A stretch of DNA of 64,000 bases from Marsupella aquatica (taxonomy: Eukaryota > Plantae > Marchantiophyta). The position numbers and the translations under genes are program-made. Below, in pieces: positions 9,841-57,908 of this stretch (position 1 is the first letter of the stretch; each line of letters begins with the position of its first letter). The notes below the pieces were generated by a model. The model was not told where the DNA came from, made no database searches, and saw only the letters and a list, made by a program, of their open reading frames with translations. The stretch spans positions 27,255,561-27,319,560 of the forward strand of contig OZ316891.1 in assembly GCA_973895155.1 (NCBI GenBank). The letters are read 5' to 3'.

Positions 9841-10363
9841 ACACTTGGCATTTTAACAGCAACAGCAGGCTTAAACACTGTAAAAAGTTTAAAATTTTCA
9901 GTAGTTTCAGGTTTTCTGTATTACCCAATACTCACAATACAAGAGAGCTTTACTGAACTCTAAGCTCGTCGGCCATACCAAATCTCCACAGTGTAAGCTC
10001 TCCTCATCTCTCAAGTGGCTCCATAATAATGAGCCTAAGTTCCACTTATCCAAGCAAACACCGCTTGGTATATAGTGTGCATCCTAGTTAACCTAACCAC
10101 ATCTTCGACTACGGTTAGTCTAACTATGGTTACATGTCGTAACCCTAGACCTTGAGTAAATACCTAACAATACAGGGTATGTCTTTTGACCAACTTCTTG
10201 AAATGATAATGTCCTATCTCTTGCTTCCTTGACTAGAAAGTTGTTGTAAGATGATCCACGATACCTTATCACACAAGCTATGTAGTGAGAACCTAAGGTT
10301 GTGTACCCCCTTGTGAGCCTTGCATCCAAACATAGCTAGATGACATATGTATTATAACCATAG

Positions 10364-30731: not shown

Positions 30732-31703
30732 ATGTCATTTCAGGCTGTCGCTCTGCATCGAAGGTTGTGTTCAACTTTGCCATTCTCTGTTACAATGTCA
30801 CGTGAAGGGAGTCCAGAGCTGGAACAACGTCTCGCCATTGAGGGCTTCCATTACACAAAGGTTAAGGATAGAGTGGGATATCACAGGTTCTTCGTATGTG
30901 CAATGGGCTCCTGTCATCAAAAATACAAGTATGGAGGTAGGATGGAACAGCATGTTCGTCTGCACTTTTTTGAGAAGCAAAATAAGGAGTTGTGGCGCGA
31001 TCCCGTGTGGACACTCACTACAAGAGTGAAGGACATGTGGAATCTAAGGAAAATCTACGTTCGCTCTTGCATTATTGCCAAGGCAAACCTGGTGTTTCCA
31101 GTGAGGCCATCGCCTCCCAATCCTGGGGTTATGCCTCCATTGATAGAGTGTATGAAGCATGTAGTCCTTCCTGACCTGCACATGCATGCCTGGGATTCCT
31201 TGTTGGATATCAAGGCATTTCGTCAATTGAGAGCTCTAATTCGCAAGGCTGGGACTAGTAACTTGCTTTCTGAATGGCTGCCTCGTGTGTGTGAGTCAGT
31301 CAATGCCACTGACAAACAAATTGGTAGTGAATATTACTTCTCACAGCTGCACCTGAATGTGGTTGCTCATGCTCTGGGCCCCATCACAGCGCAAAGTTTC
31401 AAGAATATGGATGAACCTTCTAAGGTCATCCTTAAGAAACATTCTGAACTTGCCCTGTTGTGGATTGAAGCCAAGAAGAAGGTGCTGCCCAAACAACTTA
31501 TGAAATCTGGAAACGAGATCACAAAGTCAGTACATTGCAGAGGATTTGGGACAACTTCTACCAGGCTCATCGTAAAGCCTTTCCAGATTATTCGCATGAC
31601 ACAACAGTCTAACTTACATGTACTCCCTAACACCTCTAACATTGTGTATGTTTTGGCTTCTGCAAGTACATTGAAAGATGTGGGGAAAGATGTTGGTTTG
31701 TGA
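30732..31703 (+). CDS. Hypothetical protein with an N-terminal C2H2-like finger
   Basis: 323-codon ORF; FVCAMGSCHQKYKYGGRMEQHVRLH fits C-x4-C-x12-H-x3-H. Confidence 0.5.
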   Translation: MSFQAVALHRRLCSTLPFSVTMSREGSPELEQRLAIEGFHYTKVKDRVGYHRFFVCAMGSCHQKYKYGGRMEQHVRLHFFEKQNKELWRDPVWTLTTRVKDMWNLRKIYVRSCIIAKANLVFPVRPSPPNPGVMPPLIECMKHVVLPDLHMHAWDSLLDIKAFRQLRALIRKAGTSNLLSEWLPRVCESVNATDKQIGSEYYFSQLHLNVVAHALGPITAQSFKNMDEPSKVILKKHSELALLWIEAKKKVLPKQLMKSGNEITKSVHCRGFGTTSTRLIVKPFQIIRMTQQSNLHVLPNTSNIVYVLASASTLKDVGKDVGL

Positions 31704-32952
31704 ACGCTGCAACTTTTCTGTTTTGAGTGTTATTTCTTTTTTACAGGGAGAGCTGGAGGTGGATATCCATGATGATTCAGATGGTCCCAACAAAGTTGAA
31801 TACGATCGTGCTCCTCGCCCATACCGACCTCCAAACCACCCTGACCACATTCAAGATAACAACAGATTTCAAAGGGAGCACACATCATCTACCTTGTAGT
31901 CCCGAGTGGAGTTCTCCCATGGTACAATGGAGCGGCCTATCAACCTCAGTGATTGTGAATCACCAGAGGTCTTGCCAGAACTGACCTTAGGGAAAAGATG
32001 TCTTCCTCCTCATAGCTGCAAGGCTCGGGCTAGACAGATTAAATGAGAATTTTGATCTTAAAGTCCTGAAGTAAATAGAGGGAAAAGTTTGCTTCCACAG
32101 TCGCTTGCAAACGATGTAGACTCAGTAATGAAAAGGTTCAATTCCAGTTGTTATCGAGAGTTGTTTCATACAGCCAAACACTTGTAATTTCTATTTCAAT
32201 AAAGAAGTAAGTTCACTGAACATTCAAATTCGACCTCTTTACTGCATGATTCAAATTGAAGAATTGACATTCTGCTACTTTTGCTAGTTCTCTTTGTCAT
32301 TGGCCACTTGCTTCTGGTAGGACAGTGCTGATGCATTCCAAAACTGAAGGTCGTAGACATTGTTGGAGGGGCCGCCCATCTTTAAGGGGACATTTTGTGC
32401 CCATTCCGACATCCCATCGATATATTTTGCAGGCACATTCAAATCTAAGACTTGGAATGCTCTAACATTGTCAATTGGACTTGGACTCTGGATCACTGTT
32501 GTCTTCATAGACATGGACTGCTTCTGTTTTGTATGAACCCCTTTTCCCTTCTTTTCCTTTTCAGAAATTGTTGTGTTGTCTTGCATCACAATCACCTTCT
32601 GTTTAGTTCTACGAGTTTGTTTTCCTCCTGTGTTGTGATCTCTCGCTACCCTATCCAAAAAGTCTTGAGTGCTTTCCTTCAACACCACGATCTTCTTGAA
32701 TGGCAAAGCATTGAGTAAAGAGTTCTCCTACTCCATGACTTCCTTTTGTTCTCGTGTCTGCCTCTTTGCTAATGGCCGCTTTTGTCCTTTGTAAATATTA
32801 TCAACAATGCTTAGGTGCCTTTTCTGGCTGTTCTCCGGGTCTACTCGCTTCAAGGTCCTTGCCTTTGCACTTTGGAAGGCACGATCTTGCTTCCTTGCAT
32901 TCCGTGCCACGATGTTCTTTACTTCATGCCTCCAATTCTTTAGTTTTGTCAT

Positions 32953-33282
32953 TGTCACACCATTTAGAGTGGTAGTAAAGTATATCGTACTATCTAGGGT
33001 ATAGAGGTTTTGTATGTGTGCTATATGAGCACTTTGTGTTTAGTTTGAGTTGGTGTGAGGGATAGTTATCCCCTTGTGTTGGCTCAAAGGCCTCATCTTT
33101 CAATGTTGAGCCTTTGAGCATGAGCTTGGTGGCTATGGTGTGGCTGACCAGGTTGTGTGCATGTAACGTGGATTCCTTGAAGCACAAGGTGCGTTGGGCT
33201 TGACATATATGTGTGATTGAGTCGGACAGGAACGTTGTTGGATTAGCACTGATCATTATTCAATTTTATCCGTTGAAGATTA
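32953..33282 (+). repeat. Terminal repeat A1 (copy A2 at 42371-42700)
   Basis: First 265 bp differ from A2 at 1 site; last 65 bp at 10 sites. Confidence 0.95.
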
Positions 33283-33869
33283 CATTGAAAGATCACTGCA
33301 AGTTGATTCGAAGTTGTTTCAAAGCTTGCTGTATTGCAGAGTTGATCCATGGTAGCTTGGATTGTTGAGATCTTGCTGGTTGATTTGTGGCGGGATTTGT
33401 GGTAGCTCAAGTCAGATCAGCCGTTGGTAGATTGGAGATTGTGAGCTATTGATTGCTCTGAGAGTACAGCTTGGTGTTGTTTGAAGCTCTCTGATAGTTT
33501 GTTCATTGAAGTCCTCTCTGGAGTTGATTACCGGGATTGACATTTGGAGCTTCTCGAAGCTATGAGGGATTGATCGAAGATCAGAAGGCGTCTCAAGTGG
33601 TAGTTGCTACATTGTGTTTTTGGAGTTTAGTCCTTACCGATTGCATTGCAGCATCGCAAAGGCTATTGCGGATTTGAGATTCGTTGATGGATAGTACACT
33701 TTTACAAAGAAAGTGACAATCAAATGTTGGTGAATTGTGCTGTTGGTGTCACGATGGAGTCCGCGTTGCGACGAGGTGCGGCGACAACCTAGGGCACAAG
33801 GAAAATGACAATATTGTTGAACAATGTTTTGGTCCGAGAATTGCAGCGTGTTTTGTGGCGCGCCTTGTT

Positions 33870-34452
33870 TTGGACTGGGATCATCCGAGTCCAATTGTGG
33901 GTTGTCTCTTGAGAATCATTTTGACTCAAAGTTGGATTTGGATTGGGATCATCCGAGTCCAATCGTGGGTTGTCTCTTGAGACCTCATTTTCACTCAAAG
34001 TCGGATTTGGATTGGGATCATCCGAGTCCAATTGTGGGTTGTCTCTTGAGACCGCATTTTGACTCACAGTTGAATTTGGACTGGGATCATTCCAATCCAA
34101 CTATACATTGGTAACTTCGGACCCCATTTGGACTTGAAGTTGAAGTTGGATTGGGATCATCCCAATCCAACTGTACATTGACAATGTTGGAGACTTGATT
34201 TTGGGCGAAGGTGAATTTGGATTGGGATCATCCCAATCCAACTGAATGTTGGCGTGTCCAGAGACCTCATCTGGACCTTGAAGTGGATTTGGATTGGGAT
34301 CATCCGAGTCCAACTGTGTGTTGGCGTGTCCAGAGACCTCATTTGGACCTTGAAGTGGATTTGGATTAGGATCAACCCAATCCAACTGTATCTTGGCAAC
34401 TTCACCTGTGTAGAGGACGTGAAGGACTTGGATTGGGATCATCCCACTCCAA
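33870..34452. repeat. Array of nine 25-bp palindromes TTGGATTGGGAT-C-ATCCCAATCCAA with 67-72 bp period
   Basis: Copies start at 33870, 33938, 34007, 34076, 34146, 34217, 34289, 34361, 34428; an isolated reversed copy lies at 37604-37628. Confidence 0.92.
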
Positions 34453-35068
34453 CTTGTGGACCGGGCGTCCGGATGACTGTTGAATGGATTTGAATTGGAA
34501 GTTCACCCCGACGTAGCGAAATGTGGTGGGTGTGAAGGGCTCCCTCAGGCTCATCTCGGCGACTCGTGATGAGGGGCGTGAGGGCAGAACAAGAGCTAGA
34601 TCGGAGCGGGCCGCAAGGTAGCTTGCGGGTACGTGAGGAGTAGTTGACAATTGGTTGGTTTGGAGTGCCTAAGTTGGTGCATAACTCCAAGGGGGGAGGT
34701 CACCCATCCCAAAGCTATTCCTCCTACGCGTGCTTAACCATGGAGTTCTTATGGCATGCAGTGTACACACAAGCTTTCACAACTTGTTGTCTAAGTTAAA
34801 GGGCCAGGGGGCTTTATATACTTATTAGTTTGTCTAGAGACCTGTTTTGGGCCAAATCAAAAGCTACTTAGAGGTTTTTGATATTTCTGAATCCATCTAG
34901 ATGCATAGATTGGATCAATTTTGCATGGATTCTTAGCTACAACCTTGGGGCATTGTGAAGCCTATTATGAAGGTGATGGTGATGATTTAGGGCAGATTTG
35001 TTATCACGGATTCTTCGGGTGCTACGGGGCTGTTTGGGGGACAGAGGACCGGTTTCACTCGAAGTGGG

Positions 35069-37400
35069 GTGCCATTTCGACCAACAACATTGATAGCAAT
35101 TGCAAGTGCAACTTCAGATAGTGATTCTAACGAGGACTCTGGGACCAGTTCTCCTTGTCATCGGGTGATTGCACCTTTGTTGTGGGATATGGAAGAGATG
35201 TACGGGGCTACAAAGGGCCCACGACGATACTCTGGTGCAGTTGGCACGATCGATCTGGATGACTTCATCCAGGAGTTTGATGCGTGGTGCGATATGCAGT
35301 CATTGCGTAATGCCACATTGTTTACCCCTTTCATGGTATGGAAGAGATTATTTCAGCATTTGGAGGGGCCACCCATGGATGATTACCATGAGTTTTGGAA
35401 GGCTCATTTGGTCGAGATTGAGGCATGGAGGCAGCATTGGTCGCCTAATTATGTGTCCATCACGTATGGCACTAGAGCAGCTGCCCAACCCATTGCTACA
35501 GCTGTTGCTTCTTCTAGTAGCACTAGCCAGAGTGGCACACCATCTACCAGTACCACTCCATCAACATCCATCGCTACTCCTACCGGTGTGATTGTGACAG
35601 GGGTTGGAGTTGCGCCAACATTTAACCCCGTGGTGGAGTTCTTTGAAGTATTAAAGCAAAACTATCAGGGTGTGAGGACTGATAAGTTGAAGGGTCTCCA
35701 GGATTTTTAGCGCAAGACTGGAGAGAGTCTACGTGAGGCATACACTCGTATGCGTAGATTAATCACTGTCACCAAGGGAGTGACAGAGGCTCAGGCAGTC
35801 CAATTTTGGTATGCAATTCTGGATAGAGAATTGCAACGTAGAGTGAGAGATGTCACTTTGCTTAGGGATGCAAATCCCACATTGGCAGTTGTTTTTACAC
35901 TTTCTGAGCGAAATATGGTGAATGAGAAGGTGGTGACTTTTGGATTGCCAAGGAAGCACCAAAGGCTGCATCTACATCTACACCACAGCCTACTGCACGG
36001 AAGAGCCAAAGGGAGAAGCCTATTGCACGAGAGTCTACCAGTCAGAGACTTGTGCCTTCCTATGCAGGACAGTAGTTAAGATGTTGGACCTGTGGTGGGG
36101 ATCATGCACAGCGGTGCCTAATCATAGAGGGTCAAGAGGAGCCTCAGCACCTGATCAGCGGCAGTGTGATCATTGTGGAGCTCCTGGACACACCAAGGAT
36201 AGGTGTTTTTTACTCCATCTTGAGTTACAGAGAGGAGGACAACGCACACATGATCAGGGAAGAGGAGGTAGAGGTGGTGGTCGTGGCCGAGGTATGCCAC
36301 ATGTAGCAAGGCAGGGAGGTGATACTGCTCCTGCTGTGACCACAGATCCTAAGGATGCTAAGATTGCTCAATTGGAGCAACAACTAGCTGCTAGTTCTCA
36401 AGTCAGACTTGCTTCTAGGATGGGGCTTCCACATCTTATGGAGCTGATGGGGACCTTGTCACCATGGGATTCATGTGTGGCACTGCACATATTGATGCAT
36501 CAGCAGCTTTGACACGTGGAGCAGCCAAAGCTTTTGAGCCCCAAGGAGCAGTAGTGGAGCTAGATCCATAGAGGGGGGATGCATGTCGGCAGACAAAGCT
36601 TCCTCAATCTTTTACATTGTTAGAGACAGTTCAGACTGCCTCTATGAACCTGGTTCGAACAAACCCTAGTGTGGGTAAGTTGGCAGAATCAGGTAGTGAT
36701 GCAGCAGGGATGATTGGTACCTTGTTGGGGGCGGCTACTACCATAGTGTGCACCCCATTATTTTCAGCGATAGACATGTTGAACTTGGAAGTTGGTCCTG
36801 CATAAGTGTTCAAATTGGCAGCTACACTCTGTGAGGACACTCCAGTTGTTGCTACCCATGCAGAAGCAACTTGCAGTGTTGAAGCAGTGAAGACCATGCC
36901 ACCTACTGCTACTAGTGAGACCTGGCATGTAGCAGCAGCAAGGTTGGTGGATTTACCAGCACGCCCTGCATTTGAGAGGACTAGGTTTAAACCTAGTGTT
37001 GTGTCATTGGATAATCGGAGTGGTATCTTTCGATTAGTTGGGCCTTCTGGAATGGTGTACCAGCCAGAGAGAGTGTTACTGGATACTGGTGCTCAGCCCT
37101 TGATGTTGGGAAAGTCTGCCATATGTGGATTGGGATTGCGTCTAGAGGATTTGGAGGATTGTCCCTTTCCCATTTAGACTTCATTGGGGGGACCTACACC
37201 TACACCTACATAGCACATCACCAGGAGACCAATTGATTTGAGGATTCAAGAAGGTCATGCGACAGATAGCTCACAAATACAAGCGCGAGCTATTTTGACT
37301 AAGGCAGAGTCATATGATGTGTTAGTGGAATATACAGTGCTCTACCCCATGGGATTTATTCTTGATTTTTGGGATGAATCAGTGTCATATAGACCTGATT
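35069..37400 (+). pseudogene. Gag-like region with CCHC knuckle plus aspartic protease
   Basis: RRYSG..DLDDFIQEFDAWC; ESLREAYTRMRRLI; CDHCGAPGHTKDRC; RVLLDTGAQPLMLG; YDVLV; several stops and frameshifts. Confidence 0.8.
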
Positions 37401-37816
37401 GGCAGTCAGGAGATGCTCGATTGAGCAGGTTGCCAGTGCAATTTAGTGGACCTGTGGGAGGCCCTAAATCCATACTATTGTCTTTGGCAGCATTCAGTGG
37501 TGTGATGACTGGACCTGATGATTTGATTGAGGGTAGTGCGCATGCAGCAGATGTTCCATCAGTGGAGGAGTCACATGAGGAGCAGATGGTGCGAAGGAGC
37601 AACCTGGATTGGGATGATCCCAATCCAACTAGTGTTGTGCCACCAGTATGGGGTACTGCACAGGCCTTGCCGCAGAGGGCAGCACAATTGGTACATGATG
37701 CATGGCGTCATGCTTTTACACCACAATCCGGAGTAGAGCAGTCTCCTACAAGTGGGCCAGTGACTCTTTCACTATTCGATACCACTCCTATTGCATGGCA
37801 GTATCTACCAGAGGGT

Positions 37817-38770
37817 ATTTGTTTGTTGGATCTATTTGGTGGGATTAGCACTGGATTGGCTGCTATTCTTGAGGCAGGAATTCCTGTGCGTCGCTACTTG
37901 TATGTGGAGACAGATGAGACAGCACGGAGAGTCTCATTGCACCATGTGGCTATGTTGGTGGATTATTATCCATAGTTGTTGCCAGTGGATACTATTCATG
38001 GCTATCAACATGCACTGCCTGCTGATATTTCACTGTTGGGGGCGGATCATTTGGATCGCGTTGGCCCCATTGATTTGGTGATTGCTGGTTGGCCATGTCA
38101 AGGCCAATCTAGAGCTGGAGTTGGACATGGACTTCATGATCCACGCTCTGCATTGTTTTGGGAGATGTTACGGGTATTGCGTCATCTCCAGTTACATCAA
38201 ACACATTCCCCTGTCTACATTTTGGAAAGTGTGCCATTATTGGGTGATGAGCGTCATCGACTTGTTGCTAGTGTTCATCAGGTCAGATCTTGGATTGGGC
38301 CTGTTGTGTTATTGGATGCTGCACATGTGGGTTCTCGTGCACATCGTCCACGCTTGTGGTGGACTAATTTGTTACCTTGTGAAGTGTTGAAGCGAGCATT
38401 TGATAGCATTCCTCGCTCAGCATCCTTGGTGGTGGATGATATTTTGGATCCAGGGCGTTGTGCACAACAAGTGACCCAGTCTGACAGGCCTCCATTGGCA
38501 GTGGTCAATGTAGTTGGTCGCCCGCGTTGTGCATTACCCACTTGTGTGAGTCATTCTGCTTCATATGCATTTAGAGCAGGTGGGCCTGGACTTGTGTGGG
38601 ATACAGCGCTACAGCAGTTAGTGGACCCTATTGCTGATGAAAGAGAGCGTGCTATGGGATTTTTGATAGGCACTACTGTAGTTGCCTCAGTGTCAGAGAG
38701 TTCACGCCGCCAAGTCCTTGGTCAAGCCATGGATTTGAATTGCTTGACTTGGATTATCAGCTTGGGATTA
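37817..38770 (+). pseudogene. Retroelement-encoded C5 cytosine DNA methyltransferase domain
   Basis: Motif I LLDLFGGISTG, II YVETD, IV IAGWPCQGQSRAG, RSALF, VI ILESV, VIII RAHRPRLWW, IX ERERAMGF, X RRQVLGQAM; a single in-frame TAG at 37973-37975. Confidence 0.92.
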
Positions 38771-39002
38771 GCTGAACAGTTGCGGATGCGCTCTGCTGGT
38801 GTTACTGATCGTCCATTAGTGAGCTTGCAGTCCACTGAGACAGTGATGACCACAATTGGGGGCGGGCAGACAGTCCATGGACCTATGGCAGGATTGGGCC
38901 AAGGCTGGACAGATTGTTGAGCAGGAAGGGACTACTCAATCTACTGCTAAATAGCAATCATCGGTTATCTCTTCTACCCTAAAAAAAGATATTAGGGATC
39001 TA

Positions 39003-40571
39003 GTGGAGAGTTGGGAGCCACAGATTGGTCCTAAGTTGACAGGGGAGGAGAGACATCGCATGCATCGATTCCTGAAGAGTTATTGGAATTGTTTTGCATT
39101 CAGCATGAAGGATTTGGGGACATTGAAGGGCCCTGGTATTCAGATTGAATTGGCTAGTGATGCACCAATCTTTCGTAGACCATACCGCTATATTGACATG
39201 GAGAGAGCTCTGATTCAGAGTAGAACTCAGGATTTGTTGGAGGCTGGTTTGGTGGAGAAATCATATAGGGAGTATGCATCTGCCATAGTGATGCCAGCCA
39301 AGAAGGATGTGCATGGTAATTACACGGATAAGCGCATGTGTGGTGATTACTGACCTATTAATCGTCAGACAAAATATGATCGATATGCCATGCCCACACC
39401 TGAGGAGATCTTTGATGTAGTGGGGCATGCAAAGGTTTTTAGTTCATTGGATCTGAGGGCAGGGTACCATCAGCTTCCAATCAAACATTCTAACAGGTCC
39501 AAGACAGCATTATGGGGAATTGATTCTTATGGCAAGGATCGTTTATATCAGTGGTTGTTCTTACCATTTGGGTTGAAGAATGCACCAGCTGAGTTCCAAA
39601 GAGTCATGGATCGAATTCTTGCAAGTTTGTATTTTGTTAGATGTTATATTGATGATATTTTGGTTTATTCTTCTACTATGGAAGAACATCAACGACACTT
39701 GCAGATTGTGTTTGAGAGGTTGAGGGAACATGGATTGAAGCTCCATCCTGGCAAGTGTAAGTTCTTTCAAGAACAGATTGAGTATTTGGGCCACACTATA
39801 TACCCAGGGGGATTGGGTGTACAACAGACTAAAGTGGAGGCTATTACACAGATTCCTCGTCCTACTGATGTGAGTAGAGTTCATGCATTTTTGGGATTGG
39901 CGAGCTACTACAAGAGGTACGTTAAAGGATTTAGCCAGCTTGCTAAACCTTTAACCATACTCACTAAGTTGGATCAGGAATGGATTTGGGGTGATGATCA
40001 GGAGCATGCCTTTCAGGAGTTGAAAGAAAGATTGGCATCATCCCCTATTTTGAGAAGACCCATTTTAGGGAGAATATTTCAGCTACACACTGATTGGAGT
40101 GGAGTAGGACTTGGAGCAGTGCTAACTCAAAAAGATGATGAAGGGCATGAGTTTGTTGTGGCATATGCCAGTAGATCAAACAATTTAGCAGAGGCTAAGT
40201 ATAGCTCTTATGAGGGAGAGTGTTTGGCAACAGTGTGGGCTGTGGCACACTTCCGTTGTTACTTGTTTGGTAATCCTTTCACTTTGATCACTGATCATCA
40301 GCCTCTCAAGTGGTTAATGGAGTCTGACAAGCTTACTGGAAAGCTTGCAAGATGGGCATTGTTGTTGCAAGAATATGATTTCCAGGTTGTACATAGACCT
40401 GGAAAGGTGAACTTGGATGCAGATGGGTTGAGCCGCAATCCATGTACCAGTCAGCAGGATGAGACTGGAGCCAGATGGCATGGTGAGCCAGATAAGGAGA
40501 TTTGCCAGGATGGCATGCATCTACCTTCCTTTGTTGGGTTCCAGCATGCAGTGGATCTGTGGATGTTGTAG
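39003..40571 (+). pseudogene. Ty3/Gypsy reverse transcriptase + RNase H
   Basis: RMCGDY*, LDLRAGYHQ, PFGLKNAP, YIDDILVYS, YLGH, TDWS..LGAVL, ECLA, TDHQPL, ADGLSR. Confidence 0.95.
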
Positions 40572-40750
40572 ATGATGAGTCTTCAGATGTGGATGTTGGT
40601 GAGGTAACTTCTGGACAACAAGATATTCACAATGATGTGAGAATGTTGGAATATCTATGCAGTGGTTCTATTGTTGGCAATGTTGATGCCAAGGAACGTG
40701 ACAGGGTTCTACAGAGAGCCAAGAGGTTTTGATGGGAAGGAAACCATCTT

Positions 40751-42064
40751 TTGAGAGTACTATGTGATGGTAAGGTGTTGGTGGTACCAAAACCATCACA
40801 ACGAGCACATTTGGTGCGACATGCGCACGAGGAGTTAGGGCACTTTGGTGTCAAGCGCAATTATAGCTTGCTGCAGACACAGTATTGGTGGCGTGGTATG
40901 CACACTGATGTTCAGCAATTGATAGCTAAGTGTGTGGTTTGTGATCGAGTGCGAGCATCATTTAATACTCCCACTCCCCAATTGCATCCGTTGCCAATCA
41001 TGGGTTTGGGATATCGATGGAGTTTGGACTTTGCTAGTCCATTGCCTCTTACCCAACGTCATAATCGGTATGTTTTGGTTATGGTGGAGCACTTCTCCAA
41101 GTGGATTGAACTAGTGGCATTGCTAGACAAAGCTAGTGGAGGAGTGGCTACCACATTTTTGGATTGAGTACTCAATCACTTTGAAGCACCAGCTGAGGTG
41201 TTGACTGATCAGGGCATAGAATTCCGTGGAGATTTTGAGAGTTTGTATGAGCAAGCTCTGATTGACCATCGTACTACTTCTCGCGATCATCTTGAGGCAG
41301 ATGGATTGGCAGAGAGAGTTGTACAAACTATGAAGAGAGGACTGCGCAAGTATGGCTTGCAGGTTGGTCATTTGGGAGACTGAGATCTCCAACTACCTTG
41401 GTTAGCTATGGGCTACCGTTTCAGTCGGCAAACATCACTTGCATCCTTGTCACCCTATTTCTTGCTCTATGGTAGAGAGCCAGATTTGCCAACGGCTATT
41501 CATCGTGATGTTGCAACTATTGTGGATTTGGATGATCCAGATATTTGGGTAAAGGTTTGTTTAGAGAGGGCACAAGTTTTTTAGAGAGTCATGCCCATGG
41601 CCTTTGACAACCTTGCTATTGCCCATCATCGTGATACTTTGTGGTATGCTACTATTCGTGGAGGAGGTTATCGCACGAGGATTAGGAGATTCCATCCTGG
41701 CGATTATGTCTATTTGCAGCAGACAGCACCAACGACGCTTGATGTGACCGCAGGGCGGACAATCTTGCGTGTGCGTGAAGTGTTGCCTTCTGGAGTCCTT
41801 ATATTGGAAGGGCGTGATGGTATGGTTTGGAAGGATCACGTGCGTAATTGTGCGCCATGTCACCTTCCAAACATTGATGGCATTGTGGATCCAAGCTTGG
41901 CACATGTTTGTGCTAGCTTGAAGTGTATGTTGTGTGGGTCTGCTCAGGAAGCAGCTACTATGTTGATTTGTGATAGGTGTTCTAGAGGATGGCACTTGTT
42001 GTGTTTGACACCACCCTTGCACATGATTCCTAGCGGATCATGGTTTTGTCCTCAATGTCGGTGA
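40751..42064 (+). pseudogene. DDE integrase with HHCC finger and C-terminal PHD finger
   Basis: HEELGHFG..CVVC; WSLDF; TDQGIEF; DGLAERVVQTMK; then CMLC..ICDRCSRGWHLLCLTPPL..GSWFCPQC (C4HC3). Confidence 0.93.
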
Positions 42065-42232
42065 TGCCGACCAGTTATCATTTGTGTTCTTGTGGAAGAT
42101 ATAGATTGCAGGTAGGTGATCGATGGGGCTCACTTGCACCCGGCCTCCTGATCTTTGCACCTAAAAAAGTGTATATTAACCTTGTAGAACTCATGGCTAG
42201 TTAGAGACCTCACTCCCAGCTAGGGGGGCGAT

Positions 42233-42837
42233 TGTGGGTTTTGGGCATGTGTGGACATTGGTTCCATTTGTACTCCATTCTCTTATGTTTGTGTTATTGG
42301 ATTGTGACTATGCTTGGATATGTGTAACAAGGGATGTATGTTGTGTAGCGATGTGTATGTGCACGACAGCTGTCATACCATTTAGAGTGGTAGTAAAGTA
42401 TATCGTACTATCTAGGGTATAGAGGTTTTGTATGTGTGCTATATGAGCACTTTGTGTTTAGTTTGAGTTGGTGTGAGGGATAGTTATCCCCTTGTGTTGG
42501 CTCAAAGGCCTCATCTTTCAATGTTGAGCCTTTGAGCATGAGCTTGGTGGCTATGGTGTGGCTGACCAGGTTGTGTGCATGTAACGTGGATTCCTTGAAG
42601 CACAAGGTGCGTTGGGCTTGACATATATGTGTGATCGAGTCGGATGGGAATGTTGTTGGATTAGCACTGATCGTTGTTTGATTTCATCCATTGAAGATTA
42701 TTGTGGGTTTGGGGCATGTGTGGACATTGGTTCCATTTGTACTCCATTCTCTTATGTTTGTGTTATTGGATTGTGACTATGCTTGGATATGTGTGACAAG
42801 CGATGTATGTTGTGTAGCGATGTGTATGCGCACAACA
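42233..42837 (+). repeat. 3' block B1-gc-A2-t-B2
   Basis: 136-bp B (tgtgggttt...gcac(g/a)aca) occurs twice, with ~5 differences, flanking A2. Confidence 0.95.
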
Positions 42838-44129
42838 TCATTGCAATGCTACGAACATTCAGGTCCCCATCACAAATCAGAAGTGTGTCTCCCACTACTT
42901 CTCTGAAATCATCGTCCATGAAAGTTGCCACAACATCTGATCTGTCACCCTATTTTTGTGTTGCGACGTCATCTCCTCCATCAGTATTTTGTCCATGGGG
43001 AGAGTGATGTTGAAACATGGAGGCATTTCCACGTCCTCAAAAAATTTATCGAAGGCAGGTCTTTCGAATGTGCAAGTAGGTGCCACCATGATGCCAAATC
43101 GTGTGCCAAATCTTTGCAGAATGTCAATTTATGTCATCCCCTTCATACTCAGAATCTTGAACACCTAGTGTTTACAAGTGTTCCCCTGGATGGAGCTATC
43201 ACAAGTGCAAACACAGTCCTCACTGTCGTAGTTCTCCAGTATGTGATTGTCTGTCTTCGATGGCGTCTAGGACTTCACCATTGTTGTTGCACTCTCAGTG
43301 AAGAAAGTCACATCACCATCTGGGATTGTCCTGGCTCTAAGAATAGCCGACCACACATAGTTCTCAATGTTCTTGTTTCTCACCCTGCCTTGCCACTTCA
43401 TACACGACAAGCACCAGAAAAATGTTCTAGCTCATTCACAAGCTGTGTCACTAGCCACACCACCTTCCGTCCTAGCTTGAAAGGCTTCTCCGTCCTCAAA
43501 TGCAACTTAAGAGTAGCATGCCACCGCTCAACTGCTCCATTGGTGTCCTGGTTGCCATGTTTGAACTTCCTGAAATTTCCACCCACCTCTCCACTCTATG
43601 GTGCCACTCTTTCTCATAGTATGCAACAAAGTCCTTCTGCGTGCAAATCCACCTTCTCATGAAGTTATGGGACATGTTCACAGCATCTGCAAAACAAATA
43701 AACAAAATAAGTGCACAATTCACAAGTGTGAAAAAACCCTGCCACCAAACATCACCATTAAACACCTTGGCAGTGCACAGCCCAGGAAAGAAATGTCAAC
43801 CCCAAGTGTACCTGTTGGAAGTGCACCATGATGTTGCCCAACTCCTTATTCACCTCGGCCCTTGAAATTGGGTCCAGAATTTTCTTCAAGATGTTTTTGT
43901 ATTGGGCACGTCAAACATGCCATAAACACAATACAATAGGGACTCCAGGCCATAGTGATCTGCCAAAGGATGCAAACCCATACACTCATGAGGTATAAAC
44001 ACTTCAAATTAGAGGGTTGGGGACAATTTGGCTATGTTAAGATTGGAGGGAGGGTAAGGGGTGCTAAAATAGGCTACCAAGGGAGGGACAACACATATTG
44101 GAACTGACTTCCGATTCCTCATAATGGGC

Positions 44130-44656: not shown

Positions 44657-47600
44657 TGTTGAGCATAGACGACATTCGCAACGGCAAGCCCATGAACCAT
44701 CCAACGCACAATAGTCAAACAGAGAGATACGTGGTTCACCTCCACATGAGGCTACGTCCACGGGAACACACAAGAGCTTTACTGCACTCTAGGCCGACCG
44801 GCCATACCAAGCATCCACAGCACAAACTCTCCCTATCTCTCAACTAGCTCCGTAACAATGAGCCTAAGTTTCACCAGGGTCTGGCATCAGCCCTGGCTAT
44901 ATGCACAACAGCACTACCGCTAACATTAGTTAAGCCCTAACCCAAGTTAGCCTAACTATAGTTAGCTCATGAGTCACAAGACTAGAGCAATTTCTAACAA
45001 ACTCCTCCTTGACTCTTGTCTTGGGGACTGGACTAAATGCTACCATATGGAATCCTCAGCGGGAAATTCTAGACAATCATCAAACCAGGTCTCCCCCTAA
45101 AAACCACAAGGGTTAACTAAGGGTTAACTAGAACTAAGCCGTAGCCAAACAGGAATGAGTAATCCATATACATATAGTCACACATTGCTAAATAACTCTA
45201 CTTGCACTACAACTGCAAAACCTGCAAAGTAGCACGGTGTCTTGAGAAACTTTCCAAAGGAATCACTTTGGTAAAGGCATCAGCGAGATTGAGCTTTCCA
45301 TCAATCTTGACTAGCTCAAAAGTTTTATCAGACATTGCTTGCCTGATAAAATGGTACCTGATATCAATGTGCTTCACCCTGCTATCCATCACCTGGTTAG
45401 CAGCCAGGTGAAGAGCACTCTGACTATCATAGTTTAGAGTCATTGCGCCATGCTCTAAACCCATCTCCGTGATCAACTTATCCAACCAAATTGCTTCCTT
45501 TGCTACTTCTGCTACTGCAACATACTCTGCTTCTGTAGTAGACTGAGATATACACTTCTGCAAGGTAGATTTCCAACTGATACATCCTCCTCCAAGAGTT
45601 AAAAAAACCCAGTTGTAGACCTCCTTGTATCTAGATAGCCTCCATAGTCAGAATCTACATAGCCAACTAACATTCTATTTTATCTATTATCAATAGTAAT
45701 CCATAGTCCTGTGTTCCCTTCACATACTTGAGAATCCATTTCACAGTTTCCCAATGTATCTTCCCTGGATTTGACATGAATCAGCTAACCTTGTCCATCG
45801 CTAGGGCCAAGTCAGGCCTAGTACAAGTCATCAAATACATCAGACTGCCTACTACCTTCTCATAAGGAATCTTAGCCATCAGACCTTTCTCCACAGCATC
45901 CGTAGGAGAGAAAGCCGATGATAACTTGAAATGTGAAGCTAAAGGAATACTCACTGGCTTACAATTTTCCATGTTGGATCGTGCAAGTATTTTCCTTGGA
46001 TATTGGCCTTGACTCATGCACAACTATCCAGTATCAGAGTTCCTAAAAATCTCCATCCCTAAGATCCTCTTGGCCTTACCAAGATCCTTCATCCTGAATT
46101 CAACACTGAATTTTGCCTTGAGATTGTCAACCTTAGATTGATCTTTAGCCACAATCAGCATGTCATCCACATAGATCACTAGAATGATGAAACCAAACAC
46201 ATCATTCTTGACTGATTTTGTATACACACAAGGATCATACACCATTCTTGTAAAACCTTGAGCAAACATGAAATCATCAAACTGCTTGTTCCACTGTCTG
46301 GGAGACTGCTTCAATCCATACAAAGATTTGAGCAATCTGCAAACTAAGTTCTCTTGGCCCTTCTTCATAAAGCCTAGTGGTTGTCTCATGAAGATCATCT
46401 CTTCTAAGTTGCCATAGAGAAAAGCAGTAACAACATCCATCTGATTCATCACCAGACAAAAAACACAACAAGTTGACACAAGATCCGAATTGTGAAATAC
46501 TTAGCCACCGGTGAAAAGACCTCATTGTAATCCACTCCTTTCTCCTGAGTAAATCCCTTGGCAATAAGCCTTGCCTTGTAGATCTTATCTCCACCCTCTG
46601 AAGGATTGTCCTTAAACTTGTAAATCCACTTGCTGTCCACCACTTGCTGACCTCTTGGAAGCTCCACCAGCTCCCATGTCTTGTTGTCACTCAAAGATTG
46701 CAGCTCCCTCTACATTGCTGCATTCCACTCATGCTTCTGCTCTGAAGCACAAGCCTCATTGTATGAAGAAGGCTCTCCTTCTTCCAAGATCAAAGCCATA
46801 TCATCTTCATCAGGTGCAATGTCAATATCGTCTAGCTTAGATGAGTCTGCCCATTGACCATACCTGGTAGGAGCTCTAGTAGAGCGACTGGAAGTTCTTC
46901 TAGTAGATGATTCAAACTGATCTGCTGCTGTTGCTGGCTGAATTTGTGGTACCCTAGCAACAATCTGCTCCTCTTGTTCCATCACAAGAACCAGCTCCAA
47001 GCCTGGAGCTTCTCCATCTCTCCTGTCATGAACTACATCATGACTAATCTCCCCCTCAACCCGGTCCAGGATGGGAGATTTCCCCTTGTCAGTATGGGAG
47101 TCCTGAGAACTCTCCCCCTTCTTTGATGATCTGGACTCATTAAAGGACACATCTCTACTGACAATTAACTTACAAGTTACTGGATCCCATAACCTATAAC
47201 CCTTCACCCTTTCTGATAGCCAAGGAAAATGCACTTCTTTGACTTGGACTCCAGCTTGGATCGAAGCTGGGAAGGTGTAAGCACATAAGCATCACATCCA
47301 AAATCCTCAAATGTGAGTAATCTGCTGGACGCCCGTACCTCATTTCAAATGGCATCTTGAATCCAATAGAACTAGATGGAGAAAAATTTACCAAATAAGC
47401 TGTAGTGTTGACAACTTCAACCCAAAACTCATGTGGTAAGCATGATTGACTCAACATACTTCTCAAGCGGTCCAATAGTGTTGGTTGAGTCTCTCAAAAA
47501 CACCATTCTGCTAAGGAGTATAACTTGTTGTGAGATGATTGGTAATCCCCTGCTCCTTACAATACGTTCCAAATTCCCTGAAACTGTATTCATCACTGTT

Positions 47601-50600
47601 ATCCGATCGAAGATATCTCACCTTATTACCAGATTGATTCTCAACTTGGGCTTTCCACTCCTTAAAAGTGGCAAAAACATCAGACTTATTGTGTAGAAAG
47701 TATATCCACACATACCTTGAGTAATCGTCTATGAATGTGACATAGTATAGCCGTCCAGAATGTGAGGGAGTAGGGGCTGGACCCCACACATCACTATGTA
47801 CATACTCAAGTATCTCCTTGCTGGTGTGAGTTCCAACTCCGAAGGGTTTCCTATGCTGCTTCCCAAGCACACAATGCTCACAAAATTCCAACTTACAAGA
47901 TTGCAAATTAGAAAGTAATCATTTTTTCTGAAGAATAACCAAACCTTTTTCACTCATGTGGCCCAAACTGAAGTGCCACAGCCGGGCCGTCTCCTCATGA
48001 GATAAGGTTACATTGGTTTCATCATAGACTACACTGCCCTCCAAAACGTATAGATTGCTATGTCTCTTTCCCTTCAATACAACTTTAGTACCAATTGAAA
48101 CCTGAAGGACACCATTAGCAGAACTCCACTGATGACCATTTGCTTCTAAAACTCTAAGTGAAATGAGATTTTTCATCATCTGGGAATATGTATCACATTC
48201 CTCAATGTTCTCACAACACCATCAAACATCTAAAATCTAACAGATCCAAGTCCAACAACTTGACATGGGATTCCATTTCCCATCAACACTGAACCATTGG
48301 AATCCATGTAAGAACTGAACAATTCTCTCCTAGAGCAAATGTGAAAAGTACATGCACTATCTAGAATCCAGTCATCACTACTTGGATTTGACACTACGTT
48401 GAGAGTATAACCTTGACATCACAATATGTCATCATCATCGAGCAAATCTACCTCATGTGAGTTGGATGCCACGTTAGCAGATGCAGTAGGGTTCTTTACT
48501 CGAAAATCCCTTTTCATGTGGCCAGGCTTGCCACAATTCCAACATGCAAGAGGCTTCCTCTCTTGCAATTTCCCTCTGGATTTAGATCTTCCCCGTGATG
48601 TAGATCTAAACCTAATCTGCCCATTCGTGCATTGAACTACTCTTCCCCTATTCACATTGAGCGCAGTGCCAGAAGAAGATGCTGCCTGTGATTGACCCAG
48701 CTTCTTCTGAGCATCATCAGACAGTAATGAGCTCACCACCTCATTATACGAAATGGACTTCAGATCTCTACACAAGAGCACCTGTTTCAAGCCCTAATAA
48801 GACAGTGGTAAGGAGCTTAGCAGAAGCAAGGCCTTATCCTCATCTTCAACTTCTTTTCCCAGGTTTGACAGATCCACCGCTAGACTGTCAAATTCATCCA
48901 GGTGATCCTGCAGCTTGCTCCCTTCCTTGAGCCTAAGGCTCATCAAGAGAGACTTGAGCCTGAGGCTCATCAAGAGAGACTTCTTGTTAAGCCGGTCTGA
49001 CGCATCTTCCCGATAGTACTTCTCTCTTAGAGCCTTGAACAGTGACGCGCAATCTGCATAATCATCCAGCTGCTTGATGATGTGCAGCTTGAGATATAGC
49101 ATCACCACATTGACAGCAATCACCTGCTCCTATCTCCATTGCTTCTGTGAGATCTCCTCTTCTCCATCATATTGCTCTCGCAAAGAGAGTAGATGAGCTA
49201 AGCCCATGGCCCGAAGGACACCCTTCACTTGCTTCTCCCATAGCAAGTAATCAGTACGACCATCGTACTTCTCCACCTCAAACTTCACTCCTCCAAAACT
49301 AGCCATCTCCCTCTTCTTTCCCACTACCGACAACTCTGGTAGTAGTACAACTTCCTCCATTGCACGCCGCACCGGTGATCGTACCGGTGATACTAGTTCC
49401 TCCTCAAATGGTAGGAGCTCCTCCTCAGACTCTCCGTCTAACCGTTGCGATCCTGAAGCTCCACCAATGCCAATTCTTCCAATATCCTCCGAGTCACTCA
49501 TATGAAACAATCACAAAAAAATGTCTTTTTTTGAAATTTCTTGTAAAACTCAAAACTCAACACCGCCATGTAGCCACGAAGCTAGGAGTCCAATACTGAA
49601 AGCCGAAATCAAAATCAAAATTCAACGCAAAAGTTATTCAAATTTTGGTCGGGTGGGTAAAACCTTGGGAAACTCCCCCGTTTTGATCACCTCGGAGAAT
49701 AACTAAAATACCAAGTACAACCCATCGTCGGAATCGTGATGTGATTGGTGCGCCGCGTTGCTAACTCCAGTGGCAACATCCTCGCCGAAAAAGAACCAAA
49801 AAAATTACCATTTGGCGAACAGAATCTTCGTCGGACGGCCAAAAAACAGCTCTCTGTTTTTTGGGAATATTCCCGCACAGTCCATCAGGTCCCAAGGGGG
49901 TCGTTCCCCTTGTCAGAGCGGTTAGAACGAAGGTGACTGGTCCCGGGACAGCCAAAGCATCAAACCGGGGAAAAAACAAAAAATGGGCCCTTAAAAGGGG
50001 GGTTTAAGCCCCTTAAACATAAATACGCCTTAAAAAATGCGCATTCGCGTCACGCGACGCGAGGCGGACGAGACAGGGTACAAGGATACAGGAGGACGAA
50101 TACAAATAAAAGGGTCAGGCCCGGGCCAAATACGCGTGGGGGAGCAGGCCGGCAAGGGCGAGGGCAGGTGATTGGCCGCCAGCGGCAGGCACAGCCGCTT
50201 TGTGGCAGCAGGCAGCACGATGGCGAGGGCGTATACGGGCTCGCTTAGGGTCCGGGGCGCGGGGCCTTGCGGGCTCGCAAAGGAAGTATGGGTTGGAGGG
50301 CCAGCCGTCGCAAGGGCGTAAACGGTGGTCGCGGGGGGGGGGGCGCGGGGAGGTAGTGCCGGGTGGCAGCAATCGCACCGGCCGGCACTACGCAAGGGCC
50401 TTGTAATACGGGGTGCAAGGAGGGGAGGAAAATGAATACACGGGGGGAGGAGTTAGGGCCCGAGGTACGAGGTGTGTGTATACACCTCGTATACACACAC
50501 AGGGACCAAACCCCCTATAAAATGCAAAAAAATGCCCCTAGGATAAATGAATGAAAAAACTCACTTGAAAAGCCGTTGATTTAAGTGAGAAAAGTGAACA

Positions 50601-51584
50601 CCGTCAACGGGAAATGTTGCCGAATTGCACCGACATAGTCTGCAACTCCAGCAGAGTAAAAAACTTCCGCCGCAACGCCTTCACTCCGCGTCAAGTGCCA
50701 ATCCCGGGCTCAAAATGACCGCCTCACCGCGATCAACCCGTTGAGCCGTAGCACTTTGTGTTTCTTCCACCGAGTATGACGTCACAAAGAGAAACCCGGT
50801 TCAGATGAGAACAAGCTCCATAGCTTGTGAAAAAACCTGAACGCCTCCTTCACTCGTCACGTCGCACTTGGTAACAACTCGGTAGCAATCCAGCTACCAA
50901 AACGACCAGCTCGCATCAACCTTCAACTTGAGCTATAATGTGCGATCCCTCCCGCACCGCATAGCTCACACCGTTGAAAAATGCAAACTCTGGTCTCTTC
51001 CCCAAAAAGCTGTCGAACACGAATAAAACCTGAACGATGCAAATTTCAATTCCTCCGCACTACGGATACCGATCAGCGAGTTCTAACCACCGTTAGAACG
51101 CCCTCTCACTAACCTATCTGCTCAACCACACACATTCAAGTTTTATGCGACGAAACTCCAAATGTACCATCGACAATGAACGCTGAAAAAAACCTGTCAC
51201 GAAAAAACCTTGTCACCTCCCAGGCATGCTCTAATACCACTTGTTGAGCATAGACAACATTCGTAACGACAAGCCCATGAACCATCCAACGCACTATAGT
51301 CGAACAAAGAGATACGTGGTTCACCTCCACATGAGGCTACGTCCACAGGAACACACAAGAGCTTTACTGCACTCTAGGCCGACCAGCCATACCAAGCATC
51401 CACAACACAAGCTCTCCCTATCTCTCAACTAGCTCCATAACAATGAGCCTAAGTTCCACTAGGGTCTGGCATCAGCCCTGGCTATATGCACAACAGCACT
51501 ATCGCTAACATTAGTTAAGCCCTAACCCAAGTTAGCCTAACTGTAGTTAGCTCATGAGTCACAAGACTAGAGCAATATCTAACA
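44657..51584 (-). mobile_element. Full-length decayed Ty1/Copia LTR retrotransposon
   Basis: 343-bp LTRs 44657-44999 and 51242-51584 (~16 differences); TSD TGGAA both sides; PBS tggtattagagc (tRNA-iMet type) 51228-51239; PPT at 45000-45010; gag CWNCGKPGH, PR WILDS, LWH..LGH, INT VHSDVWGP, RT YVDDML, RH STTEAEY/KHIDIRYHF in Copia order. Confidence 0.97.
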
Positions 51585-56112: not shown

Positions 56113-57891
56113 GGGATACGCTGTATCCCGTTTCAGATTCATCCCACTAAAATTAAACAAAAACAAGCTAAGTTGATCATTTGGCGCCTTAAGTTACCAT
56201 ACCGATTAAACTAGATTTGAATATTTACCAAAAGTAAAACTACGTACTGCAGAAAATTTACTAGCGACCACAGTCGACCAACGCAGTCAGTTAAGTTAAC
56301 CCAAGCAGATGGCTAGATATATTGTAGACCGTTTATTTCCCAACCACTGACCTCCATCTAAGAAATTAGAGGTATGAATACCAATAGGGATCCATGGATC
56401 CCGTTTTATTTCCCAAGTCCCAAAACAACTCAGCCAAAAGTCGGGGTGAATACGAAATGGGATCCACGGATCCCATTTGGTATTCAACCTTCCAAATTTG
56501 CCCTTGTCAAACACCTACGTCGAAAAATCAGCGTTTGAATGCCAATCGGGATCCATGGATCCCAAAATCCGATCCAACTCAAGAAACAAATAATTTTGGA
56601 ATACTCTTTTCTCTGAAAGATCAATTTCATTCTTGTTTAGAATGTGTACGGACCAATGAGTGAACGCCACGTGGACATCTTCCCAAAAACTATATAAGAA
56701 CAAGCTCGCATGTGATTCGATCTTCATTTTTTACGACTCATTTAGGTTCCTGAATAGTGAGTCTCTATTTTTTGTAGATTGTAGTCACTGGAACGTTCTC
56801 TTCCCCATAGGAATCCTTAGTCCTATAGAACCTTGATACTATCGATGGTGTCTTCAGGCGATGAGTCGATTTATAGTTCTGATGCATCTTCGCCAGATGT
56901 TGTTCGCAAATTCATTCCATCTTGTTTGATGAAGGAGCTTCCAGTCTCACATAGAGTTTTGCCAGAGATGTCATTTTCATCAGATTCAGAGAGTTCAGGG
57001 TCTGATTCCGAGTCTGGGAGAAGTGTTGTTAGAGCTCCAACATCTTATTATGTTTCTCCAAGCAAACCACTTAAACGGCGTTTGCTTGGGAGAAAGTCCA
57101 CTATCATACCCTTAGGTCAGACTAGTTCACCACGAACCCCACCAGATGCACCCAAACGGAGGCCTCAATTTCTAATGCCAAGAACGATGTTACCATGTAG
57201 GCCCGCCAAGAGATCTCCTTTGGTTTTTCCAATGTCGCATTCTCCTGGAGTCTAGATAGCTTTGTCCAGTGTGCAATCACAATTTGAGCAAATGAGAAGT
57301 CCGACGGTGCTAGAAGTGCCGGCCGCACGAAGAATGCCCAGAGGGATCCCTACTCAAAGTTTGCGGAATGGAGAGCGTGAATTGCCAATTTTGTCTCCTT
57401 CGCTACCAAATTCCATTAGTGGAATACCAAGTGGGATCCGTGGATCCCATTTGGTATTCCCTCCTAAAATTTTACCAAATGGCGAGCCGGAATTGCAAAG
57501 TGGGCAACCTTCGCCTGCTCTTTCGGGGGGAGGAATGCAAAAGAGGATCCGTGGATCCCACTTGGTATCCCCCCTGGAATTTTACCAAACGGCGAGCCCG
57601 AAGTGCAAAGCGGACAACCTTTGCCTGCTGATTCGAGGAGAGGAATTTGGAACGGGATCCGTGGATCCCACTTGGTATCCCCTCCTGGAATTTTACCAAA
57701 TGTCGAGCCTGAGTTGCGAAACGGACAAACTTTGTTAGCTGCTTTGGGCGGAGGAATGAGAAAGGGGATCCATAAATCGCATTTTGTTTTACACAACAAA
57801 AAATTGTCAAGCGCTGCCGTAGAACCGCAAGTGGGGCAGCTCTCACTTCGAAGTCCGAGTGGATGAATACAAGTCGGGATCCATGGATCCC
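56113..57891. repeat. Dispersed and tandem palindromes GGGATCC-NN-GGATCCC, some extended to ~40-bp hairpins; ~110-bp tandem unit at 57420-57800
   Basis: Cores at 56113 (variant), 56387, 56459, 56548, 57433, 57544, 57654, 57765 (degenerate), 57876; a further variant at 62908. Confidence 0.9.
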
Positions 57892-57908
57892 ATTCCGTAT
57901 TCCCATCG

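Follow-up and report, generated by a model that had tools for sequence, protein, structure and literature searches.

Among the retroelements described so far, the closest in structure to the one reported here is KnitGypsy-Dnmt3 of Klebsormidium nitens (de Mendoza et al., 2018; PMC5890265). The figure legends of that article give its order as A-coding-B-A-B (Fig. 1e) and its repeats as 'the same as a DIRS retrotransposon' (Fig. 4c); the element is treated there as an acquisition of K. nitens, and its DNA methyltransferase (DNMT) showed no activity in yeast, a result regarded by the authors as inconclusive. The available text of the article, taken apart from its figures, mentions no target site duplication (TSD), primer site, integrase attachment (att) site, PHD finger, or mechanism, and a full-text search for the name KnitGypsy-Dnmt3 returns PMC5890265 only. 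Within these sources, the layout has been printed once before, in a KnitGypsy-Dnmt3 figure legend and without a mechanism. Here we describe a retroelement at positions 32953-42837 of a 64-kb stretch of the liverwort Marsupella aquatica genome (assembly GCA_973895155.1, contig OZ316891.1, positions 27,255,561-27,319,560, forward strand; the whole stretch is called the window below), which, as far as the available text of PMC5890265 tells, shares with KnitGypsy-Dnmt3 the Gypsy domain set, a Dnmt3-type domain within Pol, and A...B-A-B repeats.

Split direct repeats of the type A1-B1-A2-B2 are common to PAT, TOC, Kangaroo, Ngaro, and VIPER, and the PAT group also has a methyltransferase domain (PMC4157794, available text); the likeness to PAT and Ngaro noted in the original prediction for this locus, which was made from the DNA letters alone, is therefore genuine. 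In contrast to these elements, which encode a tyrosine recombinase, the window element has an HHCC-DDE integrase, a protease, TG...CA ends, and a 4-bp TSD. Priming of reverse transcription by the element's own RNA is known from Tf1, in which the initial 11 nt of the RNA can pair with the site after the long terminal repeat (LTR) (PMC7175516), and from Tcn1 and TAR (Neumann et al., 2019; PMC6317226), where the available text does not include a split-repeat lineage among those listed. The window element resembles Tf1/Sushi and Tcn1 in its 11-12-nt complementarity between the predicted RNA 5' end and a site after the LTR, and in having no tRNA site; unlike it, they have ordinary LTRs at both ends, Tcn1 belonging to the chromoviruses, whereas the clade of the window element has PHD, DNMT, and D-34-E. 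The original prediction also proposed a link to Troyka, which did not survive comparison: the available description (Kojima, 2025; PMC12440569) presents Troyka as confined to animals, with CG...CG ends, a 3-bp TSD, and ordinary LTRs, and mentions neither split repeats nor PHD, so that the domain order Gag-PR-RT-RH-IN is the only likeness. We rejected this assignment on the TG...CA ends, the 4-bp TSD, the green-plant relatives, and the lack of ordinary LTRs. Across the full-text literature, as distinct from subscription papers and Repbase, no account of an internal att site or a permuted LTR in such elements was found.

It is quite possible, although we hold this tentatively, that, in a clade whose members range from chlorophyte algae to mosses and liverworts, the integrase attachment site has shifted from the cDNA ends into the LTR, and that an end-joined circle, a dead end in retroviruses, would here be the obligatory substrate of integration, with self-priming and with the element's own Dnmt3-like enzyme perhaps marking which of the two sites is cut. 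The Dnmt3-like domain, the self-priming site, and the Klebsormidium layout (PMC5890265, available text) were all absent from the original prediction.

Split repeats at the window locus and in related copies

The whole element reads A...B-A-B and is bounded by a 4-bp TSD. Its noncoding features and its host sequence are listed below in window coordinates.

32949..32952 (+): left TSD, TCAT, from the flank match and the empty site
32953..33281 (+): A1, the left end, beginning TG; second half of the LTR as defined by reverse transcription (presumably the rest of U3, R, and U5)
33095..33106 (+): predicted self-primer and transcript 5' end; exact complement of 33282-33293, the start position itself being predicted
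33282..33293 (+): predicted primer-binding site (PBS) of Tf1 type, directly 3' of A1
33869..34397 (+): tandem array of the 5' leader, unit 69-72 bp, about 7.4 copies, palindromic core
42222..42230 (+): polypurine tract abutting B1
42231..42368 (+): B1, ending CA; first half of the LTR as defined by reverse transcription
42365..42374 (no strand): palindrome GACA-GC-TGTC, an intact right-end/left-end junction and predicted integrase cutting site
42371..42699 (+): A2
42700..42837 (+): B2, the right end, ending CA, joined bluntly to A2
42838..42841 (+): right TSD, TCAT
42838..43595 (-): host sequence, upstream part of a transposase-like frame, multi-copy and decayed, that has a SWIM-like motif (weakly MULE-like), resuming left of 32949

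A1 and A2 (32953-33282 and 42371-42700) are identical at 319 of 330 positions, B1 and B2 (42231-42368 and 42700-42837) at 133 of 138, both without gaps; GC at 42369-42370 separates B1 from A2, and the 64-kb window holds no further copy of A or B. The repeats thus align as originally described, with the spacer gc and the purine tract before B; an extra t that had been placed between A2 and B2 disappears if A ends at 33281 and B starts at 42231, which leaves the joint blunt. All 11 differences between A1 and A2 are transitions, eight of them at CpG, and they cluster in the CpG-rich part of A, so that the A pair and the B pair fit one age. Separate inheritance, considered as a reading of this clustering, was dropped because CpG decay accounts for it.

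TCAT stands on both flanks, and the minus-strand host frame continues if one TCAT is skipped (the flanks being translated separately). Because host and element both go on with TG, the TSD can also be read as 6 bp at this locus, and the relatives settle it at 4 bp. Related host copies provide the empty site: two contigs of sequencing run X1 leave the window sequence at 32954 and pass into sequence like that of the right flank. The TSD, the empty site, and the continuous host frame bear out a single integration event by a DDE integrase, with TG...CA ends and a TCAT TSD. The further claim that a MULE frame is restored holds for the frame, but the name MULE has as its sole basis a SWIM match below the cut-off (E 0.011); the host has the appearance of a DNA transposon present in multiple copies and now decayed.

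The A...B-A-B layout is confirmed as a real, family-wide trait. In contigs from four sequencing runs (two studies, two organisms; joints and ends counted among the matches listed), the end of A joins the start of B at the same place in other copies, 19, 35, and 32 contigs of runs X1, X2, and X3 have varied flanks after B, and contig cover continues from A into the leader. An integrase-based scan yielded 80 metagenome loci (the best 80 of 508) and six in prokaryote bins, 86 in all; the six contigs from prokaryote bins (L161-L166) are likely eukaryotic binning contamination. A B end is readable at 54 of the 86 loci: at 26 of them (20 distinct insertions, B2 being seen in 14) B is followed by a 2-nt spacer and A, and at 28 (24 distinct insertions) a single B runs straight into host DNA. 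The 32 remaining loci end too early (10), are disrupted or unreadable (12), or are too distant for B to be defined (10); among them L139 and L144 look B-A-B, and five of the 10 distant loci hold the exact palindrome. Besides the window copy, complete elements read A...B-A-B (L095, L097, L134) or A...B (L089, L090, L102, L142). With the window copy included, five of these eight have an exact 4-bp TSD, two have one mismatch, and L102 has none. None of the 12 distinct 5' ends shows B beside A1, as an ordinary LTR would give.

A one-off rearrangement, a tandem insertion, an assembly artefact, or an ordinary LTR (an A-B element that has lost its 5' B) is a further rival account of the window copy, and the age and decay of that copy, together with the collapsed contigs L105 and L161, in which B-A precedes the primer site as in an ordinary B-A LTR, might be taken in its favor. 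However, three other complete elements from two families have the same layout with TSDs of their own; 14 distinct 3' ends read B-A-B; the assembly that contains L161 also contains L162, whose end is B-A-B; no B adjoins A1 in the 12 distinct 5' ends; an empty site is seen; and the layout was noted in Klebsormidium (PMC5890265, figure legends). The recurrence of the layout in other runs and loci refutes an explanation of this kind, which had been named as what would overturn the original prediction and to which we give almost no credence.

L112, L113, and L116 have lost sequence either spanning the B1-A2 junction or reaching from the PHD region into A2. Among viral contigs, a DNMT-based scan gave phage methylases only (26-35% identity, kept as background), and an integrase-based one gave no match.

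Primer site, purine tract and the reverse-transcribed unit

As predicted, no tRNA-type PBS follows A1, and the window contains no tRNA gene. In its place, the 12 nt at 33282-33293 are exactly reverse-complementary to 33095-33106 within A1, against a background of 76 in 63,588 window positions with a comparable 11-mer. The families of L097 and L134, as well as L161 and L105, keep the pairing with other letters, which makes five sequence classes including the window, and L161 and L105 differ by two compensating changes. When 14 A copies were subjected to an anchored self-priming test, nine paired at 11/11 and three at 10/11; in each of these 12 good cases, at most one of 200 control 11-mers (88 controls for L105) scored as high. 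The pairing does not appear in minimum free energy folds of the leader, whole-leader folding being no test for an 11-nt duplex. In six distant loci without an anchor, candidates of 16 and 14 nt are present in L123 and L149, and nothing clear in L152, L155, L163, and L166. Seven of 13 copies have a TATA box 31-36 nt upstream of the primer site, and one copy with a deletion has it 23 nt upstream; from this spacing in relatives, the RNA 5' end is predicted to lie at the self-primer.

A G-rich tract adjoins B in the window element and its relatives. With the purine tract before B and the primer site after A, the unit duplicated by reverse transcription would be B-gc-A; and, as both sites are placed where an ordinary LTR B-A needs them, reverse transcription looks conventional, the oddity being the place where the integrase cuts. 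The original prediction's end regeneration by a non-LTR, possibly tRNA-independent route is upheld in part: the lack of a tRNA primer site is confirmed, but a non-LTR route is weaker than conventional reverse transcription of the unit B-A.

The same evidence bears on a PAT/Ngaro-like scheme, in which the RNA would span A1 into B2, B1-gc-A2 would serve as the template restoring both ends, and an integrase would stand in the recombinase's place. The A1-B1-A2-B2 layout of PAT and Ngaro (PMC4157794, available text), the intact end junction B1-gc-A2, and the precision of most A/B joints agree with it. A minus strand primed directly after A1 would, however, transfer only to A2, bypassing B2; the purine tract abuts B1 in relatives; A2-B2 is lacking in 24 insertions; the reverse transcriptase groups with Ty3-type enzymes; and, with eight of the 11 A1/A2 differences at CpG, separate inheritance of the two copies is not proven by them. 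We consider this scheme improbable.

Two side observations concern these noncoding parts. A second copy of the PBS 11-mer lies outside the element (31669-31679), probably by chance, and an extra copy of the palindromic core of the leader array lies inside pol, before the DNMT domain (37600-37630).

An internal palindrome and the candidate route of integration

The inserted ends, TGTCA... and ...GACA, are the two halves of GACA-GC-TGTC, which lies in the middle of the B-A unit. The spacer measures 2 nt in all 20 insertions (GC in 10, transition variants of GC in nine, CC in one). The exact 10-mer GACAGCTGTC occurs at 15 of the 86 element loci, including distant ones at 45-51% protein identity, and at none of 80 phage loci (1.02 Mb). 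As the genome record reads, the ends made by reverse transcription and the ends used for integration would be different places. Foamy virus integrase cuts a circle junction of the type CA-AT-TG on both strands (PMC1180852), and in the available text both it and HIV-1 integrase (PMC1180852; PMC1905944) resemble what is proposed here in making staggered cuts, one after the CA of each strand, in a palindrome whose center is 2 nt long; there, however, the palindrome is the LTR-LTR joint and its cutting a side route that restores the normal linear form. In the window clade the palindrome lies inside the LTR, and cutting there appears to be the normal route. Among bacterial DNA transposons, which have no RNA step, IS3/IS911, IS30, and IS21 have a DDE enzyme that cuts abutted ends with a short spacer in a circle.

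A...B-A-B is a circular permutation of B-A...B-A, for which end joining followed by an internal cut is the simplest route. We favor, with some confidence, a two-LTR cDNA that is joined end to end and opened by the integrase at the internal palindrome. From the observed anatomy, its conservation, the covariation, and the TSDs, we infer the following intermediates and activities. The transcript would begin inside A1 near 33095 and finish in A2; its 5' end, judging from the covarying sequence, would pair with the site after A1 and prime the minus strand as in Tf1. The purine tract would prime the plus strand at the start of B, which would leave B-gc-A at both cDNA ends, and joining of the two blunt ends would create the A/B joint. 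The integrase would finally nick after each CA of CA-GC-TG, GC would be lost, and strand transfer would produce the 4-bp TSD; the ends and the TSD of this last step are seen directly, while nicking and strand transfer are deduced. A cut at the palindrome copy beside the primer site would give A...B-A-B, the sole product retaining the terminal redundancy for another round, and a cut at both palindromes, or a one-LTR circle, would give A...B, likely a dead end.

In 12 sibling insertions, the A/B joint is blunt in seven, lacks 2 nt in three, carries a larger deletion in one, and has a 17-nt insert with a purine-tract remnant in one. B-A-B and single-B copies do not differ in two proxies of age, identity and CpG count (p 0.48 and 0.84; low power), so that later recombination is unsupported as the source of single-B copies.

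Several points weigh against this circle route. Its circle, cDNA ends, transcript ends, and enzyme activity are all predictions from sequence. A circle with two equal palindromes would be expected to yield the mirror product A-B-A...B as well, and this is found in none of the 12 distinct 5' ends, against four complete and two probable A...B-A-B (p 0.016 for 0/6), so that the circle model needs an unexplained bias. Most A/B joints are precise, which fits a templated joint as well, and the variant lacking 2 nt is possibly inherited. Recombination between B1 and B2, or assembly collapse, could have produced the A...B copies, and one of the eight complete elements (L102) has no TSD. In the self-priming test, L156 fails (7/11) and L102 is weak (eight pairs plus three G-U), the anchors for L142, L156, L161, and L105 having been set after looking and the better of A1 and A2 taken where both were present; and the TATA box is absent in five of 13 copies, among them the window copy.

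The same priming and cutting sites could also operate without a free circle, if 1-2 shared bases let the reverse transcriptase jump from where A ends to where B starts, or if host repair joins the free ends after the internal ends have been inserted. End-to-end jumping by reverse transcriptase is a known behavior. The A/B joints overlap by A or AT, use of only one of the two palindromes could be accounted for in this way, and the joint variants fit as well as they do with a circle; the sequence, however, gives nothing that separates the two routes, and we judge the one without a circle rather unlikely, though worth keeping in view. Our preference stays with the circle.

One locus shows a rearranged end. 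L083 (1166-1798) continues after B-A and the primer site with the first half of A in inverted orientation, up to a terminal CA; 172 of 181 positions of the inverted part are identical, which marks it as an aged genomic feature. This single case fits integration of a plus strand after fold-back at the primer complement and cutting at the half-site.

Coding content, lineage and implications

The coding features, all on the plus strand, are given below.

35189..36392 (+): Gag-like region with two zinc-knuckle-like motifs, disrupted by stops and frameshifts (tblastn with Marchantia P0003; motifs read from the sequence)
36960..37400 (+): broken aspartic protease with the motif LLDTG, limits approximate (Asp_protease_2 of Pfam, weak, E 0.014)
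37817..38780 (+): Dnmt3-like C5 cytosine methyltransferase domain with one in-frame stop (PF00145, E 2.9e-9)
39006..40499 (+): reverse transcriptase and RNase H with one in-frame stop (Pfam; comparison with relatives)
40790..41900 (+): integrase, interrupted by in-frame stops, with HHCC finger, D-D-E core, and a C-terminal part specific to the lineage
41924..42064 (+): PHD finger and stop codon (PF00628, E 3.3e-11)

The window copy is dead, old, and broken: its matched segments contain 12 in-frame stops, and the frame changes four times within its two open reading frames (ORFs). The Asp_protease_2 signal is stronger in intact relatives, and motif VI of the methyltransferase, which lies between protease and reverse transcriptase, reads ESV in the window copy versus ENV or ENT in relatives; P0001, the closest homologue of this domain, has DNMT3A as its best PDB match (E 3.6e-11). 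The HHCC and D-D-E residues of the predicted integrase are present, with 34 residues from the second D to E. A PHD finger stands in place of a chromodomain, and among the matches listed one of 120 relatives has PF00385 besides PHD. From their predicted functions, the Dnmt3-like domain would likely methylate new cDNA and the PHD finger would likely read chromatin. No Pfam match to a tyrosine recombinase was obtained in 12 plus-strand pieces of the window, a scan that did not extend to the element's minus-strand ORFs, or in eight long ORFs of four intact relatives, two minus-strand ORFs (L146, L155) lying outside that scan; in L105 and L161, no further ORF reaches 250 aa. Both ORFs of L161 are open where covered.

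In a tree of 179 reverse transcriptase-RNase H (RT-RH) sequences, the window element falls within a clade of 77 (support 0.999); with midpoint rooting and unnamed Gypsy-like outgroups, this tree shows the clade and does not place it among named plant lineages such as Tcn1, Chlamyvir, Phygy, Selgy, and OTA. For the relative P0065, the best PDB match of RT-RH is Ty3 (E 1e-91), ahead of a caulimovirus-type polyprotein and retroviral reverse transcriptases. The clade's hallmarks are DNMT, PHD, and the D-34-E integrase, the latter spacing being found in 25 of 27 scored clade proteins, whereas scored outgroups have 35-36 residues there, except the sister P0241. A Pol order PR-RT-RH-IN, Ty3-closest RT-RH, TG...CA ends, and a 4-6-bp TSD agree with Ty3/Gypsy; identical LTRs at both inserted ends and D-D-35-E spacing are lacking. 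The best explanation is that the element belongs to a Ty3/Gypsy-type retroelement clade of green plants. Its named members come from Marchantia, Calypogeia, Sphagnum, Coleochaete, Closterium, Volvox africanus, Chlamydomonas eustigma, and Monoraphidium, and the nearest named relatives of the window element are liverwort and moss proteins. The homologue matches listed include no Klebsormidium-named protein, the charophytes in the clade being Coleochaete and Closterium.

Domain arrangement varies among relatives. DNMT lies between RNase H and integrase in algal-type members (P0039, P0040, L146, L152, L155) and between protease and reverse transcriptase in bryophyte-type members, like the window element, so the domain has either changed place or been acquired twice. 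P0241, which the RT tree places as sister to the clade, has a Dam-type adenine methylase between protease and reverse transcriptase, a PHD before the integrase, and D-34-E. L152 (10364-11830) and L155 (11450-13831) have extra long ORFs 3' of the PHD without a Pfam match, and the Pol C-terminus of L152 gives a weak adenine-methylase match. Elsewhere in the window, a similar family of palindrome-cored arrays lies at 56364-57907, and a Copia-type LTR element at 44657-51541, with LTRs about 95% identical over 300 bases compared and related LTR pieces at 786-1001 and 9936-10046.

The usual view is that integration of LTR elements and retroviruses proceeds through the ends made by reverse transcription, and to our knowledge the opening of end-joined DNA at an internal site is not an established route for retrovirus-like elements. 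If the circle route holds, the clade would be a natural case of circles as true precursors, a role long debated for retroviruses, and the route is testable on short DNA substrates. As LTR-finding software requires two equal ends, the clade has probably been missed or mislabelled in algal and bryophyte genomes, in which its Dnmt3-like domains inflate host methyltransferase counts. The clade also offers a bridge between LTR elements and the split-repeat elements that use a recombinase.

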